Assembly (NCBI GenBank): GCA_963787195.1
Contig: CAWBCI010000073.1
Location: forward strand, 18,582 to 82,581
Length of the DNA: 64,000 nt
Direction of reading: 5' to 3'
Source: an uncultured Bacteroidales bacterium
Lineage (GTDB): Bacteria > Bacteroidota > Bacteroidia > Bacteroidales > JAGOPY01
Positions within the stretch are counted from its first letter, which is position 1. Every line of letters starts with the position of its first letter. Below, piece by piece: positions 32,730 through 61,152 of this stretch. The position numbers were made by a program, and so were the translations under genes. The notes under the pieces were generated by a model, which was not told the origin of the DNA, made no database searches, and saw only the letters and a list, made by a program, of their open reading frames with translations.

Positions 32730-32856
32730 TAATCATGTAATAAACTAATATACAAAAAGATAAATAGCTTGCTAATAAAAATTATCACATTCAGGATTTT
32801 CGGGGTGGAGAATGAAAACACAATATTAAAATGGAAATTAGGGGATATTTTACTAT

Positions 32857-33060
32857 AAAAAAAGCCCTGCTGTTGGATTTTCAGCGGGGCTTGAATGGAA
32901 CGCTTAAACTACGCATTTTGGAACGCTTCTTTAACCTTGTCTTAATACATTATTTTTGTGAATAATTGACTTAAATAACCGGATTGGCAAGTCCGGAAAA
33001 AACTTCAATCTCAATTTACTTATTCAAATATTGTACGCTATAAATTGATGATTGAAAATC
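32857..33060 (-). ncRNA. Candidate sRNA (sibling 2), about 200 nt
   Basis: It runs from module U2 to the terminator AGCCCCGCTG-loop-CAGCAGGGCT plus U7 (32857-32891). The longest ATG ORF is 12 codons. CGUUCC occurs twice. Confidence 0.45.
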
Positions 33061-33066
33061 ATTTAG

Positions 33067-33136
33067 CAAAGATGGGACCTCAATTGTCAAAAATTATTAC
33101 ATAATTTTCGAAAAAATTTACATAATTCACACATTT
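33067..33136 (-). promoter_or_regulatory. 70-bp tripartite promoter module U2
   Basis: caaagatg is at 33067-33074, TTACATAATT at 33097-33106 and TTACATAATTCACACATTT at 33118-33136. Confidence 0.65.
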
Positions 33137-33196
33137 AAAAAACATAATTATTTATATAATTAATGAAAAATAAAATTAGCAGGATAAGGAAATTCC

Positions 33197-33324
33197 AAAA
33201 AAAGTCCCGCTATTAAGTTTTATTAGCGGGACTTAAATTAAACACATATACTCCCAAACCCATGAAAGCTTCTTTATTGATTATTTATTATTATCTATTC
33301 TAGATATTAATTGTGGAACGATTG
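33197..33324 (-). ncRNA. Candidate sRNA (sibling 3), about 130 nt
   Basis: It runs from module U3 to the terminator AGTCCCGCTA-loop-TAGCGGGACT plus U7 (33197-33233). The longest ORF is 16 codons. It shares AAAGAAGC(G/U)UUC and CGUUCC with sibling 2. Confidence 0.45.
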
Positions 33325-33330
33325 ATATTA

Positions 33331-33400
33331 CAAAGATGGGGTATCAAGCTCCCAAAAATCTTACATAATTTCTGAAAAAATTTACATAATTCACACATTT
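33331..33400 (-). promoter_or_regulatory. 70-bp tripartite promoter module U3
   Basis: caaagatg is at 33331-33338, TTACATAATT at 33361-33370 and TTACATAATTCACACATTT at 33382-33400. Confidence 0.65.
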
Positions 33401-33496: not shown

Positions 33497-33566
33497 TAAT
33501 GTGTGAATGATGTAACTTATTACTAAAGTTTTGTAACACTAATGGAGAACAGCTTATATAACTTTA
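33497..33566 (+). promoter_or_regulatory. 70-bp tripartite promoter module U4 (only + strand copy)
   Basis: TAATGTGTGAATGATGTAA is at 33497-33515, AGTTTTGTAA at 33527-33536 and TAACTTTA at 33559-33566. The ATG of the downstream gene is at 33631. Confidence 0.65.
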
Positions 33567-33630
33567 TGCCATAGTAGAAATTGATGAATCGCTGCCCCGC
33601 CAGATGCGGATATCATAAAAAATAAAATAA

Positions 33631-34707
33631 ATGCAAAAAGATAAATTAACAAAACTTGCATGCGCGAGAAGTAATCCCTGCGTGACTATTTCAATGAACA
33701 CACACCGTACATTTCCGGATAATCAGAAAGATGTGATAGAACTGAAAAAACTCAAGCTGGAGGCATATAAGCAGGTGAAGAATGAATTTGGACAATTTCC
33801 GCTGAGTGATCTGCTTGAAAAAATTGATGGTCTGGATGAGGAAATAGACATTAACTATAATTTGGAGAGCATACATATATTCCTGTCTGACTCGACAACT
33901 GAAATAATAAAATCATCGTGGCCAATACCGCAAAATATCGTTTCTGTTGCTGATAAATTTGTGATCAAACCATTGATCAAAGATTTTAACCGCATGGTAG
34001 AGTATCTTATCCTCTTGCTTTCTCAAACCGATGTGCGCTTATTACATGCCATTAATGACGGTATAGCCGAAGAAATAAAACCCGATGATTTTCCCTTTAC
34101 AACAAATCCGCATTTTACAGTTGAGGAGGATAAAGCCGGCAATGATCAGCATCTTGATAATAAATTTCTGGAATTTTATAATCAGATAGACAAAGCCCTT
34201 TTAAAAATTTACAACAAAAACAAGATGAAAGTTGTGGTGATAAGTACTGAACAGAACTGGAGCCACTTGATGCAGGTTGCTGACAAAGCATCAATTTATT
34301 ATGGGACCCTTAGCATTAACAACAAGGATTCGGCAAATCATTCAATCGCAGCAAATGCATGGAAAATCGTAAGTGCAATACAGGAAAAAGGAAGGGGCCA
34401 GGCTATTCAGGAAATGAAGGACGCTGCCGGACAAGGAAAGGTAATTACCGATTTGTCTGAAATGTACAGGGCTGTCAAAGAGGGAAGGGGTGATTTATTA
34501 ATTGTTCACGACGACTTTCACCAGGCCGTAAAAATGACCGGCGAATTGACATTCGATTTAGTAAGCGATCTCACTCAGCCGGAAGTGATAGATGATATTT
34601 CAAGCGATATGGCCTGGGAAGTCATTTCTAAAAAAGGCCGTGCAATATTTACGAATCAGGATGAGCTTAAATCGCTGGGAAACATTGCTTTAAAAGTCCG
34701 ATATTAG
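33631..34707 (+). CDS. baeRF-like (bacterial archaeo-eukaryotic release-factor-like) family protein
   Basis: The N-terminal PCVTISMNTHRTFPDNQKDVIELKKLKLEA resembles the VSIYxPTHR..Q..IRLKNL signature. The C-terminal GRGDLLIVHDD and the ending ALKVRY also fit. This call rests on recall, not a search. Confidence 0.45.
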   Translation: MQKDKLTKLACARSNPCVTISMNTHRTFPDNQKDVIELKKLKLEAYKQVKNEFGQFPLSDLLEKIDGLDEEIDINYNLESIHIFLSDSTTEIIKSSWPIPQNIVSVADKFVIKPLIKDFNRMVEYLILLLSQTDVRLLHAINDGIAEEIKPDDFPFTTNPHFTVEEDKAGNDQHLDNKFLEFYNQIDKALLKIYNKNKMKVVVISTEQNWSHLMQVADKASIYYGTLSINNKDSANHSIAANAWKIVSAIQEKGRGQAIQEMKDAAGQGKVITDLSEMYRAVKEGRGDLLIVHDDFHQAVKMTGELTFDLVSDLTQPEVIDDISSDMAWEVISKKGRAIFTNQDELKSLGNIALKVRY

Positions 34708-40754: not shown

Positions 40755-40824
40755 TAAAAATAAATACGATGCTGATTATTTGCATTACATATTTCTGTAA
40801 ATAAGTTACATGATTCTCACATTT
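40755..40824 (-). promoter_or_regulatory. 70-bp tripartite promoter module U7 (most diverged)
   Basis: taaaaata is at 40755-40762, TTACATATTT at 40785-40794 and TTACATGATTCTCACATTT at 40806-40824. Confidence 0.5.
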
Positions 40825-47869: not shown

Positions 47870-48400
47870 TTATTTCCTCTTTCCCTTGCTCCCGCCATGG
47901 CCCTTCTTTCCTTTCCGGTCATTATGATTGTTACGGGAATTCCTGTTATGGCCCTGATCATTATCTCTCCTGTGACGGTCATTGGAACGCATTTTTTGAC
48001 CATGGTGACCTCTCATAGGCCTTTCCCCGATGCTGTGCTGCACTGGTCCACGATAACCTCTGGAATACCGTGATTTATGATCCCTGAAATGTTGGTAAGG
48101 CTCGTTACCGCGATAATCCGTAATCACTACCTTATATCCGTCGTACAGATCATAATTCCTGTAACGGGATGGAAGATGAGAACGGTGTACCCAGTTTCCC
48201 CTGACATAATAAATGAACATGCTGGAATGGACATCATAATAAGCTTCAACATCGGGCAGGTAATAGAACCTGACATCGGAATAGCCTACAGGGCCCCAGA
48301 GTGGCGGCGAGCCTATGTTTACGCTTACTGAAACCTGCGCATGCATGGCACCTGCGAGAAAAAGCACAACTCCAACAAGAATTAATTTTAAACTTTTCAT
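47870..48400 (-). CDS. Secreted protein with basic His/Arg/Asn-rich tail, hypothetical
   Basis: It has a signal peptide and a Tyr-rich core. The tail is RGHHGQKMRSNDRHRRDNDQGHNRNSRNNHNDRKGKKGHGGSKGKRK. Confidence 0.55.
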   Translation of the reverse strand: MKSLKLILVGVVLFLAGAMHAQVSVSVNIGSPPLWGPVGYSDVRFYYLPDVEAYYDVHSSMFIYYVRGNWVHRSHLPSRYRNYDLYDGYKVVITDYRGNEPYQHFRDHKSRYSRGYRGPVQHSIGERPMRGHHGQKMRSNDRHRRDNDQGHNRNSRNNHNDRKGKKGHGGSKGKRK

Positions 48401-48425
48401 CTTTAATTATTTAATTTTTAGGGAG

Positions 48426-48495
48426 TAAAGGTGAGAAGTTTATGAGGGGAAAGTATTACACAATTAAATTAAAGACTTACATCATTCCCACATTT
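48426..48495 (-). promoter_or_regulatory. 70-bp tripartite promoter module U9
   Basis: taaaggtg is at 48426-48433, TTACACAATT at 48456-48465 and TTACATCATTCCCACATTT at 48477-48495. The downstream ATG is at 48400. Confidence 0.65.
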
Positions 48496-48534
48496 TTGTG
48501 GGATGAAACAAGCATAAGATGATGTGATTCCGGT

Positions 48535-48892
48535 AAAAAAAAGATGCCGGCACTAACTCAGTGCCGGCATCAGCCAGTCAAATGCTACGAAAAGGGACAT
48601 TGAACCCTTAATGATACCTGAATCAGGATGATGCAGGCAGTGGAGGGGGGTATTAAAATGTAAGGAACATTGGAACTTACCGGCATGGTATTACGGATGG
48701 GGGGAATTATGCCGGTAAGGATGTCAGCAATTTAATTCTGCTGATACCTGCCCCTGTATAATGGATATTAGGCATTAAATTTGAAGTTAATAAAATGTCT
48801 GCCATTTTAGTTTCAAAGAACTCATCAGCCTCCTAAATTTGCCTGTCAGCGGACATCCCGGATAAAAGACAATAGGAGATTCTCATAAATTA
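48535..48892 (-). ncRNA. Candidate structured ncRNA or micropeptide locus, unit A (about 360 nt)
   Basis: It runs from module U10 to the terminator GATGCCGGCAC-loop-GTGCCGGCATC plus U8 (48535-48571). No ORF exceeds 35 codons. The internal 11-bp hairpin at 48676-48719 has the loop core CCAUCCGUAAUA. Confidence 0.4.
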
Positions 48893-48898
48893 TTATGA

Positions 48899-48968
48899 CG
48901 AAGATCGTGACCTTTAGTAGAAAATGCATTATATAATTCTTGAAAAAGTTTACATAATTCACACATTA
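48899..48968 (-). promoter_or_regulatory. 70-bp tripartite promoter module U10
   Basis: cgaagatc is at 48899-48906 (a weak -7-like box). TTATATAATT is at 48929-48938 and TTACATAATTCACACATTA at 48950-48968. Confidence 0.55.
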
Positions 48969-49011
48969 TTAAATGGGGATGTGTTTTATAATGAAGAAGA
49001 ATGTGTTTTAT

Positions 49012-49429
49012 ATAAAAGAAAGATGCCAGCACCTGTAAGATGCTGGCATTAGCCGGTTTTGCTGTGAAAGGGGGCAATGACAATTGTGAAAGAATTCAGC
49101 ATCAGTACGATGCTGATACCGGCTGATTAACATTAACGAAAGGGCCGTTGACCGAATCGGCAATGACATCCGTACGATGCTGATGCCTGACGGTATTCGG
49201 CTGAGGAAAGGGCGTACTACCTACCGGCACATTATTACGGATGGTGAAAATTGCGCCGCTTAGGATAAAAGCACCAGATGTGTGCCTTCTTTTGCCCCTG
49301 TTCCATGATGAATAATGGCAATGACTTTTACATTTTTAAATCCTTGCCAATAAATTTTCAAAGAACACATTAGAAATCAAAAAACTAGTTTGAGCAATTG
49401 AATTTTTTTTCATCTGCTTTGAAAGCAGG
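49012..49429 (-). ncRNA. Candidate structured ncRNA or micropeptide locus, unit B (about 420 nt)
   Basis: It runs from module U11 to the terminator GATGCCAGCA-loop-TGCTGGCAT with a U-rich tail (49014-49049). The first ORF is only 25 codons. The hairpin at 49220-49264 has the same loop core as unit A. Confidence 0.4.
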
Positions 49430-49435
49430 AAAAGA

Positions 49436-49505
49436 CAAAGTTCGCGCTCCAGGTCAAAGAATTTATTACATAATTTCAGAAAAGATTTACATAATTCACA
49501 CATTT
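49436..49505 (-). promoter_or_regulatory. 70-bp tripartite promoter module U11
   Basis: caaagttc is at 49436-49443, TTACATAATT at 49466-49475 and TTACATAATTCACACATTT at 49487-49505. Confidence 0.6.
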
Positions 49506-49543
49506 ATGAAATTGTATTTATAAGGATTTTGATGTCTTTAAAA

Positions 49544-51379
49544 TTATTGATAATGGATCGGGGCAGGCTTTCCGATAATATAATCCCCTATTATGAAATC
49601 GTTGGTCCTGAAGGAGTTTACTTTAAAAACATTCTCTCCTTTACCGGGTATTACGGGGTAAAAGGCAAGAGAAAGCTGAAATGTACTGAAGACCAGGTAG
49701 TCGTTTTTGATCAGGATTCCAACACCTATTTTTGCGTATACTTTGCTGTTTTTAAATCCTGTTTCCCTATCACTCAGCATACCAATCGAACAGCTTATAA
49801 ATGGACCGAAACGAAAGCCGATAAAATTCCAGGGGGCATAGGCTTGCGATTGCATCGTAAATATCATGCGGCTGTTACCTGATAAAGAAGGGCTGTTAAA
49901 TCCATCCAGACCATAACCATCATTGAGTGTAAGGCTATCGTAAGAAAGCCTGTTTATGCCTAAGATTAGCTGGGGTTTGACAAATTCCCTGAATTTCCAT
50001 TTTCCAATTTCCAGCAATCCCGTAAAATATATAATGTTTGCAGAAAATATTCCCTGCCTGGAATGTGATTGCCGGAAATAGGTCCCATACTCGAAATTGG
50101 AACTGAGATAACCCCAGGAATAATAATTGCCGAAAGCAACCCGGGCGCCTAAGTACAAACTTCCGGTATTATTTCTTTCCTGGTAACCGCCTGTCAGACT
50201 GAATACCTTCCCGATGGGGATATCTTCAATCAGACCAAAATTGAATATAAATTTATCCTGAACATATTTTCTTTGCGAGATCCCAATGCTTCCCAGGTAT
50301 AGATTTTCATTGGAATATAAGCTTGCTGTATCATACATCTCAACTGGCTTGTCCGTAAAACGGATTCTTATAAAACGGACGGCGGAAATAAAATTAGTTG
50401 TGCGCATATTTACCGTATTGCCTTTAAATAATTGAAAGGCATTACCCGCCCAATAATCCTGCACACTAAATTTATATTTCTGCATCAAATAAAGCGAATC
50501 GTTAATGTGGAGGGTATCCCTGCGGTATTCCTGTTTGATAAGTGCACCCGCCCCCCACTTCGCAAGTGGAGAAAAGAAAGGACGGTCAACGGATATACTT
50601 TCAGTAAAATTTCTGTGCTCATCAGTGCTATAATTCAGGGTACTGTTAATATAGGTGTCACGGATGTTAGGAATGAAATAATTGGTCGAGAAAGCATCTT
50701 CTCCGGTGGTATGTTGCCAGCTGTATATATTTCTGAATTCATGCCCAAGGCCTAAAAAATTCCCGTCAAGAATATTAAAAGCGATGCGTGAACCTGAAAC
50801 CACGACTTTTGGAATAATGCTCCAGGTATCTAATTCGCGTATGAAAATATCCACCGAGTCTGAATTTTTTGAAGTGGCAAGAATAAAAAATGAAACATCA
50901 CGAACATATGGCTGGCTGCGGACCAATCGTTCAGATTCTTTCACAAGCAATGAATCGAAGACCTGGTTTTGCCGTATGAGTAGCAAGTTCCGTATAGTTG
51001 AATGCTGTGACTTAATGTGCATTTTATTTCCGCCCCTCATTATGAAGTTTTGAGAGGATACTATGGTGTCGGCAATTGAATTGCCAAAAGGATCAAGGGT
51101 TACGATATTTATATGCCTGATAATCTTTCCTTCAAAAGCGCTATATGGCTTTCTTATCAGTTTTTTATAAGCTTTCTTTTTTTTGGAAGCGGATGCAGTT
51201 GGTTTGAAAACCATGCGGTACATGAACTGGGTAAACTTGCTTCGCCCCGAATAGGCTTCCAGATTCTCATAAAATTTCTCCGGATCTGCTTTCGTGGTAT
51301 CTTTTTGCGCAAACGCAAAATCACTTGCCAAAATTGAAAAAAAGAAAAATATGAGAATGGTTTTAAACCACATATGCAT
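49544..51379 (-). CDS. Omp85/BamA-TamA-like outer-membrane beta-barrel protein
   Basis: It has a signal peptide and a POTRA-like segment (GKIIRHINIVTLDPFG...RNLLLIRQNQVFD). The long Tyr/Gly/Asn-rich beta-barrel region ends in an aromatic residue. Confidence 0.5.
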   Translation of the reverse strand: MHMWFKTILIFFFFSILASDFAFAQKDTTKADPEKFYENLEAYSGRSKFTQFMYRMVFKPTASASKKKKAYKKLIRKPYSAFEGKIIRHINIVTLDPFGNSIADTIVSSQNFIMRGGNKMHIKSQHSTIRNLLLIRQNQVFDSLLVKESERLVRSQPYVRDVSFFILATSKNSDSVDIFIRELDTWSIIPKVVVSGSRIAFNILDGNFLGLGHEFRNIYSWQHTTGEDAFSTNYFIPNIRDTYINSTLNYSTDEHRNFTESISVDRPFFSPLAKWGAGALIKQEYRRDTLHINDSLYLMQKYKFSVQDYWAGNAFQLFKGNTVNMRTTNFISAVRFIRIRFTDKPVEMYDTASLYSNENLYLGSIGISQRKYVQDKFIFNFGLIEDIPIGKVFSLTGGYQERNNTGSLYLGARVAFGNYYSWGYLSSNFEYGTYFRQSHSRQGIFSANIIYFTGLLEIGKWKFREFVKPQLILGINRLSYDSLTLNDGYGLDGFNSPSLSGNSRMIFTMQSQAYAPWNFIGFRFGPFISCSIGMLSDRETGFKNSKVYAKIGVGILIKNDYLVFSTFQLSLAFYPVIPGKGENVFKVNSFRTNDFIIGDYIIGKPAPIHYQ

Positions 51380-59643: not shown

Positions 59644-61152
59644 GTGCAAATTTATTATAAAAAGAAGAGATGGAAGTGGCTTTTATTCGGACTGGCACTA
59701 ATCATCTTTACCCTTTCACTATGGTATACGAATATACTGGCTAGAGAAATAGCCAAAGATGAAAGGACCAATATACACATCTGGGCCAATGCTATCCACC
59801 GTAAAGCCAATCTGGTAAATTATACAAAGAAATTCTTTGACCAGATCAAGGAAGAGGAAAAGAAAAGAGCTGAAATACTCGCGGGGGCTTACCAGAATAT
59901 ACAGAATGTGGAAGATTCACCTACGCTGACTTTTTACTGGAAACTGATAGATAATAATACTACTATCCCAATAATACTGACTAATAAGGAAGGGAGGATC
60001 ATATCCTATAAGAATATCAGCGATGTAGATATGAAAAACCTCAGCATGATGACCGACAGTCTGAAGAATGTCTTTTCTTCCTTTGATCCCATCAAGATTG
60101 TTTACTATGCTAACGATTATCAATTATTGTATTTTAAGGAATCCAAGATATATACCGAGTTGCGGATGGTTCTGAATGATCTTCTTGAATCTTTTTTTTC
60201 GGAAGTGGTGGGAAATTCGGCCTCAGTTCCTGTTCTCATAACCGACAGTACACATATGAGGGTTATCGAGAGCGGGAATATTGATAAAAAGAAGCTGGAA
60301 GATAAACATTATGTGGAGTCGTTGATTTCCAAAATGTCAGGAGAAAATGACCCCATTGTAATTAACCTTCCGGAATTTGGGAAGAGCTATATTTATTATA
60401 TGGATTCTTTGCTGCTCAGGCAGATCTTATATTATCCATATGTGCAGTTTATCGTGATAGGGGTTTTTCTTATGATATCCTACCTTTTATTCAGCACTGC
60501 CCGTAAATCTGAACAGAACCTGGTCTGGATCGGGATGTCAAAAGAAACTGCACATCAGTTAGGCACGCCTCTTTCATCCATCATGGCCTGGATCGAACTG
60601 CTTAAGATCAAGGGAGGAAATGAGGAGGAGATCAGTGAGATCGAGAAGGATATCCGGCGCCTTGAAAATATCACCGAACGATTTTCCAAGATAGGTTCGC
60701 CTGCAAAGCTGGTAGAGGTAAATATTGTGGAGGTGATTCTTGAATCGATCGATTATTTGAAGATGCGTACCTCGCGTAAGGTCATATACAGCACGAATGT
60801 CAATCCCGGTCAGGTGATCATTGCACCTGTGAATATACAGCTTTTTGAATGGGTGGTGGAAAACCTATGCAAGAATGCAGTAGACGCCATGAACAATACC
60901 GGTAATATCAACATCTCTGTTACCGAGGACCCGAAAACTGTCATTATTGATTTTGAAGATACTGGCAAGGGAATCAGCAAGTCAAAGTTCAAATCTATCT
61001 TTCACCCGGGTTTTACAAGCAAAAAGCGAGGATGGGGCCTGGGTCTTTCCCTTTCGAAACGCATTATTGAGAATTACCATAAGGGTAAAATTTTCGTAAA
61101 ATCTTCTGCTCCGGATAAGGGAACAGTTTTCAGGGTGATATTGAAAAAATAG
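59644..61152 (+). CDS. Sensor histidine kinase (orphan)
   Basis: It has two TM helices and a HisKA H-box (ETAHQLGTPLSSI). The HATPase_c N, G1 and G2 boxes are NLCKNAVDAM, DTGKGI and GWGLGLS. Confidence 0.8.
   Translation: MQIYYKKKRWKWLLFGLALIIFTLSLWYTNILAREIAKDERTNIHIWANAIHRKANLVNYTKKFFDQIKEEEKKRAEILAGAYQNIQNVEDSPTLTFYWKLIDNNTTIPIILTNKEGRIISYKNISDVDMKNLSMMTDSLKNVFSSFDPIKIVYYANDYQLLYFKESKIYTELRMVLNDLLESFFSEVVGNSASVPVLITDSTHMRVIESGNIDKKKLEDKHYVESLISKMSGENDPIVINLPEFGKSYIYYMDSLLLRQILYYPYVQFIVIGVFLMISYLLFSTARKSEQNLVWIGMSKETAHQLGTPLSSIMAWIELLKIKGGNEEEISEIEKDIRRLENITERFSKIGSPAKLVEVNIVEVILESIDYLKMRTSRKVIYSTNVNPGQVIIAPVNIQLFEWVVENLCKNAVDAMNNTGNINISVTEDPKTVIIDFEDTGKGISKSKFKSIFHPGFTSKKRGWGLGLSLSKRIIENYHKGKIFVKSSAPDKGTVFRVILKK

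Follow-up and report, generated by a model that had tools for sequence, protein, structure and literature searches.

Two tandem paralogous units of an uncultured Bacteroidales genome as candidate non-coding RNAs of a stress-type regulon

Small RNAs embedded in stress regulons

To our knowledge, post-transcriptional control in Bacteroidota, a phylum without Hfq and without Shine-Dalgarno-based initiation, is known almost solely from gut Bacteroides. In enterobacteria, the sigmaE-dependent MicA, RybB and MicL and the paralogous OmrA and OmrB are small RNAs (sRNAs) embedded in regulons. OmrA and OmrB have been described as a paralogous sRNA pair (bioRxiv 10.64898/2026.06.26.734639), while GibS and FopS of Bacteroides act by pairing in the proximity of start codons (PMC7366714, PMC11697453). 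The promoter of GibS is a non-canonical, stress-associated motif, PM2 (PMC7366714), known as the stationary-phase and oxidative-stress promoter motif of B. thetaiotaomicron (PMC7366714). For environmental Bacteroidales, a literature search returned no description of a general stress response that combines a defined promoter signature with sRNAs attached to it. Here we consider two adjacent units at positions 48401-49543 of a 64-kb stretch of DNA (the window, that is, the whole stretch analysed) from the genome of an uncultured Bacteroidales, which are probably two non-coding RNAs of a stress-type regulon.

Architecture of the two units

Read on the minus strand, 48401-49543 is made of two tandem units, unit 2 first and then unit 1, each with its own promoter module, a body poor in open reading frames (ORFs) and a strong intrinsic terminator, and each terminator runs straight into the next promoter module. 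No downstream gene lies within either unit. The modules and strong terminators that a first-pass annotation of this DNA had assigned to two units of ~360-420 nt were both recovered, the first box being present without any mismatch before each unit and the terminator stems comprising 13 (unit 1) and 12 (unit 2) pairs. Transcription and transcript ends are predicted from sequence motifs only, and the parts of each unit are as follows.

Unit 2
49012..49429, minus strand: predicted non-coding transcript of ~415 nt, with a predicted start near 49429
49463..49503, minus strand: promoter module, first box ATGTGTGAATTATGTAA at 49487-49503 and second box AATTATGTAATAA at 49463-49475
49436..49443, minus strand: -7-like element GAACTTTG, resembling TAnnTTTG and spaced from the module as in other copies
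49262..49299, minus strand: stem of AGGG (49296-49299) and UCCU (49262-49265) around hairpin A
49268-49288, minus strand: hairpin A, stem AAGGCAC/GUGCUUU
49220..49264, minus strand: hairpin B, stem CGGCGCA/UGUGCCG plus CCUA/UAGG, with CCAUCCGUAAUA in the loop at 49233-49244
49053..49190, minus strand: tandem pair of ~70-nt 3' modules, seen as secondary nhmmer matches (E ~1e-3)
49012..49049, minus strand: intrinsic terminator, 12-pair stem at 49023-49049 followed by the U-rich tail CTTTCTTTT

Unit 1
48535..48892, minus strand: predicted non-coding transcript of ~360 nt, with a predicted start near 48892
48926..48966, minus strand: promoter module, first box at 48950-48966 and second box AATTATATAATGC at 48926-48938
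48899..48906, minus strand: weaker -7-like element GATCTTCG
48718..48755, minus strand: stem of AGGG (48752-48755) and UCCU (48718-48721) around hairpin A
48724-48744, minus strand: hairpin A, stem UCAGCAG/UUGCUGA
48676..48719, minus strand: hairpin B, 11-bp perfect stem and 22-nt loop, with CCAUCCGUAAUA at 48689-48700
48572..48640, minus strand: lone 3' module, consisting of the hairpin CCUG..CAGG, UCAUU and CCCUUUUCG
48535..48571, minus strand: intrinsic terminator, 13-pair stem (8 G-C) at 48543-48571 followed by U8

Two cis-acting readings of this arrangement were considered and rejected. A regulatory leader or riboswitch does not fit units that are each closed by a strong terminator and followed by a unit or gene with a full module of its own, and no riboswitch model of Rfam matched. 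An antiterminator was suggested by the resemblance between the arms of hairpin B and the unit-1 terminator (GCCGGCA), but this likeness is absent from unit 2.

Paralogy and conserved fold

Judged by their alignment (nhmmer E=1e-13 over ~280 nt), the two units are true paralogues. Their identity is patchy, with shared blocks (GTTCTTTGAAA, TGGCA, ACAGGGGCA, ATCCT, AATTnnCnCCATCCGTAATAnnnTGCCGGTAnGT, AATACC, GCATCA, TCATT and CCCTTTCG) separated by segments in which identity is near random. RNAalifold, run on the pair, finds a common core of ~80 nt composed of the AGGG/UCCU stem, hairpin A, and hairpin B with its 22-nt loop holding the identical CCAUCCGUAAUA; the AGGG/UCCU stem accounts for the conservation of ACAGGGGCA and AUCCU. 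In the 100-nt core alignment all 18 pairs are formed in both copies, with changes on both sides in four of them and on one side in two, and pairing falls to 33-47% once the 3' partners are displaced by 1-3 columns. The consensus fold of the central 96 columns reaches -18.1 kcal/mol, compared with -5.0 +/- 2.2 for column shuffles (z=-5.9), none of 300 shuffles being as good. When the units are folded singly, with terminators removed, z is -3.3 and -3.6 on the minus strand, and -1.4 and -1.5 on the plus strand: only the predicted strand folds better than its shuffles.

Most of the structural details of the first-pass annotation withstood this comparison. The hairpins that it had placed at 48676-48719 (an 11-bp perfect stem) and 49220-49264 (a stem kept with other bases) are both present, ACAGGGGCA is common to the two units, and the common loop word, CCATCCGTAATA, has exactly two occurrences in the whole window (48689-48700 and 49233-49244). 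A local hairpin proposed near 49097-49115 was found in unit 2 as TCAGCATCGTACTGATGCTGA at 49096-49116. Hairpin A, in which base changes preserve the structure, and the AGGG/UCCU stem come in addition. The repeated GCUGAURCC words proved to be a weak feature; the real internal repeat is the ~70-nt 3' module, which is in tandem in unit 2.

Both units are thus of modular build, with a variable 5' part that includes a GUUCUUUGAAA block, the two-hairpin core, and a 3' module present once in unit 1 and twice in unit 2, the tandem duplication accounting for most of the extra length of unit 2. Each of the two 3' modules of unit 2 has a short GCAUC..GAUG hairpin, GUCAUUGCC and CCCUUUC, in that order, and across the whole of unit 2 there are three copies each of GUCAUUGCC and CCCUUUC and two of AUCAGCAUCGUAC. 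The 12-mer ATCAGCATCGTA opens each of these 3' modules (49106-49117 and 49173-49184, minus strand); a third copy at 40765-40776 (minus strand) lies between the second box and the -7 region of a promoter at 40806, and three copies per 64 kb are far above chance.

Coding potential

The units lack a coding signal. A single ORF reaches 60 aa (48883-49083, starting with TTG, 66 aa); the first-pass annotation had dismissed it, rightly, since it runs through the terminator of unit 2 and the module of unit 1. The same annotation gave the best ATG ORFs as 12-35 codons, a list to which two longer ones must be added, at 49008-49169 (53 aa) and 49336-49503 (55 aa). Neither is credible: the former passes through a terminator, and the ATG of the latter is the module's own ATGTGTG. 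A gene caller had picked up the 55-aa ORF, whose sole match in 5.8 billion proteins was to itself. In unit 2, a frame of 77 codons without a stop, the longest one seen, has no start codon before the GTG of GVG..., and a search of 1.84 billion representative proteins gave it no relative.

Comparing the two copies points the same way. Three-frame translations of both units contain no common ORF, and no frame stays free of stop codons in both copies along the whole of the six ungapped alignment blocks. Codon-like substitution, named beforehand as a sign that would speak for a protein, was looked for between the two units and found in no frame: over the 87-nt core block the three codon positions take nearly equal shares of the substitutions (12/9/10, 8/10/12 and 10/12/9), and few of the codon changes are synonymous. 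The MPV(S/G)S starts, which the first-pass annotation noted to overlap the hairpin in naming a micropeptide alternative, correspond to the conserved 3' arm of hairpin B. The shared DNA words that follow them fall into differing frames of the two ORFs.

Promoter module and regulon

The promoter module is a genuine element of a regulon and is also kept before stress-type genes of relatives. Allowing up to 3 mismatches, its first box, the 17-mer ATGTGTGAATTATGTAA, matches the window 14 times (0.44 expected), a count that no shuffle reached; the matches before unit 1 (48950-48966) and unit 2 (49487-49503) are without mismatch. Module copies can be aligned over ~45 nt and follow one layout: ATGTGTGAATnATGTAAC, ~14 nt, TGTGTAACAC, then a -7-like TTTG word. 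This last, nAnnTTTG-like word lies ~20-25 nt downstream of the second box and resembles the Bacteroidetes -7 element, whose consensus is TAnnTTTG (PMC7366714). Three direct TGTRAAY-like repeats are found inside the module.

Which genes does the module precede? In the window, these are the genes of a DUF5670 protein, a YtxH protein, a 176-aa secreted protein and an ice-binding-like protein, a Mla-like operon, a baeRF-family gene, and several small proteins of 51-96 aa. In relatives, the module precedes CsbD, OmpA-family, ribosomal S30AE-family, alpha/beta-hydrolase, YceI, DUF5670 and DUF6600 genes and members of the 176-aa family, and it is kept almost letter for letter (loci L001-L017) across Bacteroidales lineages whose proteins are only 60-73% identical. 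The ribosomal S30AE family includes ribosome hibernation factors. This gene set has the content of a general-stress or stationary-phase response.

Two roles are conceivable for the module: an activator could bind it upstream of a -7 box of the sigmaA type, or it could itself supply the -35 and -10 elements for an alternative sigma factor. The predicted start sites shift by ~25 nt between the two readings. A small AraC-family protein (HTH_18, 172-186 aa) is encoded beside module-driven genes in this genome (55380-55940 of the window, minus strand) and in two distant relatives (L013 6897-7415; L017 2619-3179), and is a candidate MarA/SoxS-like activator of the regulon. The gene of the baeRF_family3 protein, a bacterial homologue of archaeo-eukaryotic release factors (33499-34707, plus strand), has a plus-strand module ahead of it and therefore appears to be a member of the same regulon. 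RNA-guided transcription of the dCas12f-sigmaE type (PMC13472631) was considered because the module is highly uniform, and was rejected, as segments of the units match the module or other promoter regions only as chance 11-14-mers, and 14 sites per 64 kb do not fit that system.

Two shorter module-driven units without credible ORFs are found elsewhere in the window, at 32855-33398 on the minus strand:

33382-33398, minus strand: module of the first shorter unit, leading to the terminator AGTCCCGCT..AGCGGGACT plus T7 near 33195-33232
33118-33134, minus strand: module of the second shorter unit, leading to the terminator AGCCCCGCTG..CAGCAGGGCT plus T7 near 32855-32892

These shorter units have the words AAAGAAGCKTTC and TTTAAG..CCCGCT in common; no similarity links them to units 1 and 2, and they are possibly another paralogous pair of sRNAs in the same regulon.

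Genomic setting

On the minus strand, the region of the two units lies between two genes, one ending a module-driven operon and the other with a module of its own:

49544-51379, minus strand: gene of a 611-aa protein, the last of the Mla-like operon
47870-48400, minus strand: gene of the 176-aa secreted protein
48477-48493, minus strand: promoter module of the 176-aa gene, directly after the unit-1 terminator

The nearest sampled relatives of the source genome are 73% identical in the 611-aa protein. In 16 loci taken from relatives by means of homologues of both flanking genes, gene order varies downstream of the 611-aa gene, which is followed by CsbD, DnaJ-domain or DUF4421 genes, as well as upstream of the 176-aa gene, which is preceded by an ice-binding-like, OmpA or CsbD gene (intervals compared: L001 6828-7400; L004 5192-5520; L008 8282-8770; L010 5860-6019; L013 9787-10000). 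The units stand at this break in gene order, so that the pair is either lineage-specific or mobile within the regulon island.

Searches for homologues

The units belong to no described RNA family, by sequence or by covariance model. Comparison with Rfam and a collection of homologues had both been proposed for them, and neither brought a relative. The 4227 models of Rfam 15, which include Bacteroidetes sRNAs, 6S, riboswitches and leaders, gave no match in the whole window at gathering thresholds, and in the units region yielded chance-level matches only at E up to 10, the best scoring 19.6 bits for a threshold of 36.2. Among 185,579 species genomes, there was no match to the exact patterns ACAGGGGCA-N38-58-CCATCCGTAATA and module-N229-259-CCATCCGTAA. 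A scan of metagenome contigs with CCATCCGTAATANNNTGCCGGTA returned a single match, within a 243-aa ORF of an unrelated, higher-GC contig, which is about the chance expectation for 20 specified bases. In ~130 kb from module-carrying relatives, read as ~10-20 kb around a few genes each, no copy was found by nhmmer or by a covariance model of the core (R1), the nearest known relative being already distant; the same two tools and the loop word found no third copy in the window. Plasmid and phage collections contained nothing similar to the units. A mobile or repeat element, such as a miniature inverted-repeat transposable element, a phage or a plasmid, was rejected for lack of any further copy in the window and of any plasmid or phage match.

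Proposed function and alternative explanations

How could the two RNAs work? Each RNA gene would be transcribed from its own copy of the regulon module and stopped at its own intrinsic terminator, and both RNAs would for this reason be made when the stress-type regulon is switched on. They would then act by base-pairing, the 12-nt CCAUCCGUAAUA in the 22-nt apical loop of hairpin B serving as a putative mRNA seed. Pairing through this loop is the most likely mechanism, and is favoured because the word is the sole long identical one, is G-poor, and is displayed in a large apical loop; seed function and targets are predicted from these features. Its complement, UAUUACGGAUGG, contains AUG, so the loop could cover a start codon. 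The RNA pair would form the post-transcriptional arm of the regulon. A broader scheme can be put forward as a tentative possibility, in which the two RNAs and the two shorter units (32855-33398) would together constitute the non-coding arm of an undescribed regulon of the general-stress type in environmental Bacteroidales, with the AraC/MarA-like activator acting via the 45-nt module, and the RNAs representing a new class of large, modular riboregulators with a seed in a loop.

The paralogy of the units, their kept core, their strand-specific fold, the lack of coding signal and the regulon module before each unit all agree with the original proposal of two paralogous structured non-coding RNAs of the regulon, which they support in part. 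Several points weigh against it. No homologue of the units was found in Rfam, in the genome and metagenome scans or in the loci of relatives, and covariation consequently rests on two sequences only, where 24 of 500 shuffles tie and the control floor is ~1 in 16. The source genome is itself absent from the collection of species genomes, and the collection scans demanded exact words picked from the two copies, which diverged relatives would escape. Searching the 64-kb window for targets of the loop word gave no complementary gene start, the best non-self duplex of the loop falling inside a coding region near 60160. The 3' halves have no common fold in a MAFFT alignment (z=+0.2); by eye, a short hairpin can be seen in both units between the conserved GCAUCA and UCAUU, with stems that differ (CCUG/CAGG vs CAUC/GAUG).

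Might the units encode small proteins instead, RNA structure merely tuning their translation? Small ORFs are present in both, the candidates being MPVSS... (33 aa) and (M)PVGS... (42 aa), which start from the 3' arm of hairpin B, and the 5'-proximal MRISYCLLSGMSADRQI (17 aa) and MKKNSIAQTSFLISNVFFENLLARI (25 aa); the 5' ORF of unit 2 opens with ATGAAAAAAA, an A-rich context typical of Bacteroidetes starts, and several true regulon members are proteins of 51-96 aa. Yet the paralogues keep no ORF in position, length or sequence, the words AATACC, GCATCA, TCATT and CCCTTTCG fall in differing frames after MPV(S/G)S, no frame has an excess of third-position changes, the open frame is without relatives among 1.84 billion proteins, and the start codons are buried in the 11-bp stem, all of which makes this explanation quite unlikely. 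It is likewise unlikely that the units are decaying duplicates, either pseudogenised remnants of a regulon gene or a duplicated intergenic segment, with no function of their own. Such an origin would suit their location exactly where gene order differs from that of the nearest relatives, their being known so far from this genome only, the start-less 77-codon frame of unit 2 and the patchy similarity of the copies. It sits poorly with perfect promoter boxes and strong terminators in both copies, with stems that still pair despite base changes and a consensus fold far above column shuffles, and with the dependence of fold stability on the strand; the stop-free frame has no relative among those proteins, and neutral drift would not hold a 12-nt loop word identical beside segments at random level.

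The main alternative among explanations by RNA is that the units bind and titrate a protein, in the manner of CsrB/RsmZ or of the RNAs bound by the RNA-recognition-motif protein RbpB of Bacteroides. At 360-415 nt the units are long for sRNAs that act by base-pairing, and the repeated words of unit 2 (GUCAUUGCC, CCCUUUC and AUCAGCAUCGUAC) and its duplicated 3' module recall the multiplication of sites in sponge RNAs. Unit 1, however, holds each repeated word only once, the most conserved element is one loop and not a repeated motif, and no partner protein can be identified at the locus, so that titration appears improbable, and two base-pairing RNAs of the regulon are the preferred explanation.

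The case for the RNA pair has so far been made in silico and from one genome, and its weight is limited accordingly. The promoter module may be the more generally useful result, since it lets members of the regulon, coding or not, be predicted from the sequence of uncultured genomes. If real, the RNAs would offer a handle on how the regulon represses its targets.

Comparison with known systems

The sRNAs of enterobacteria differ from the units in phylum, in their dependence on Hfq, in their length (80-110 nt) and in having seeds at the 5' end, and there is no homology between them. Nevertheless, MicA, RybB, MicL, OmrA and OmrB have in common with the units a stress-regulon promoter signature that is also found before protein-coding members, and OmrA and OmrB are, like them, tandem paralogues in which a seed (putative in the units) is conserved and the rest has diverged. 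CsrB and RsmZ are close to the units in general build (~350-400 nt, own promoter and terminator, modularity with duplicated segments), but they carry many GGA loops, whereas the units have no many-fold repeated motif, and unit 1 is single-copy in this respect.

The nearest parallels are with GibS and FopS. These RNAs show no sequence or model match with the units (Rfam 15, E up to 10), and FopS has a single-stranded 5' seed stretch directly before its terminator hairpin (PMC11697453), in contrast with the units, which are 360-415 nt long, modular, and carry the conserved word in the loop of a mid-RNA hairpin. In other respects the resemblance is close: all belong to the same phylum and lie between genes, each with a promoter of its own and a Rho-independent terminator, and they exist as paralogous copies that have a short, identical stretch of single-stranded sequence in common, the seed in GibS and FopS. 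Expression in stationary phase or under stress, and pairing at start codons in a phylum without Shine-Dalgarno sequences, are further traits of GibS and FopS to which the units are likened from sequence alone. Taken together, the units most likely form a new family within a kind of RNA already known, the regulon-embedded paralogous sRNAs, to which, if real, they would add an unusually long and modular type with its seed in a loop.

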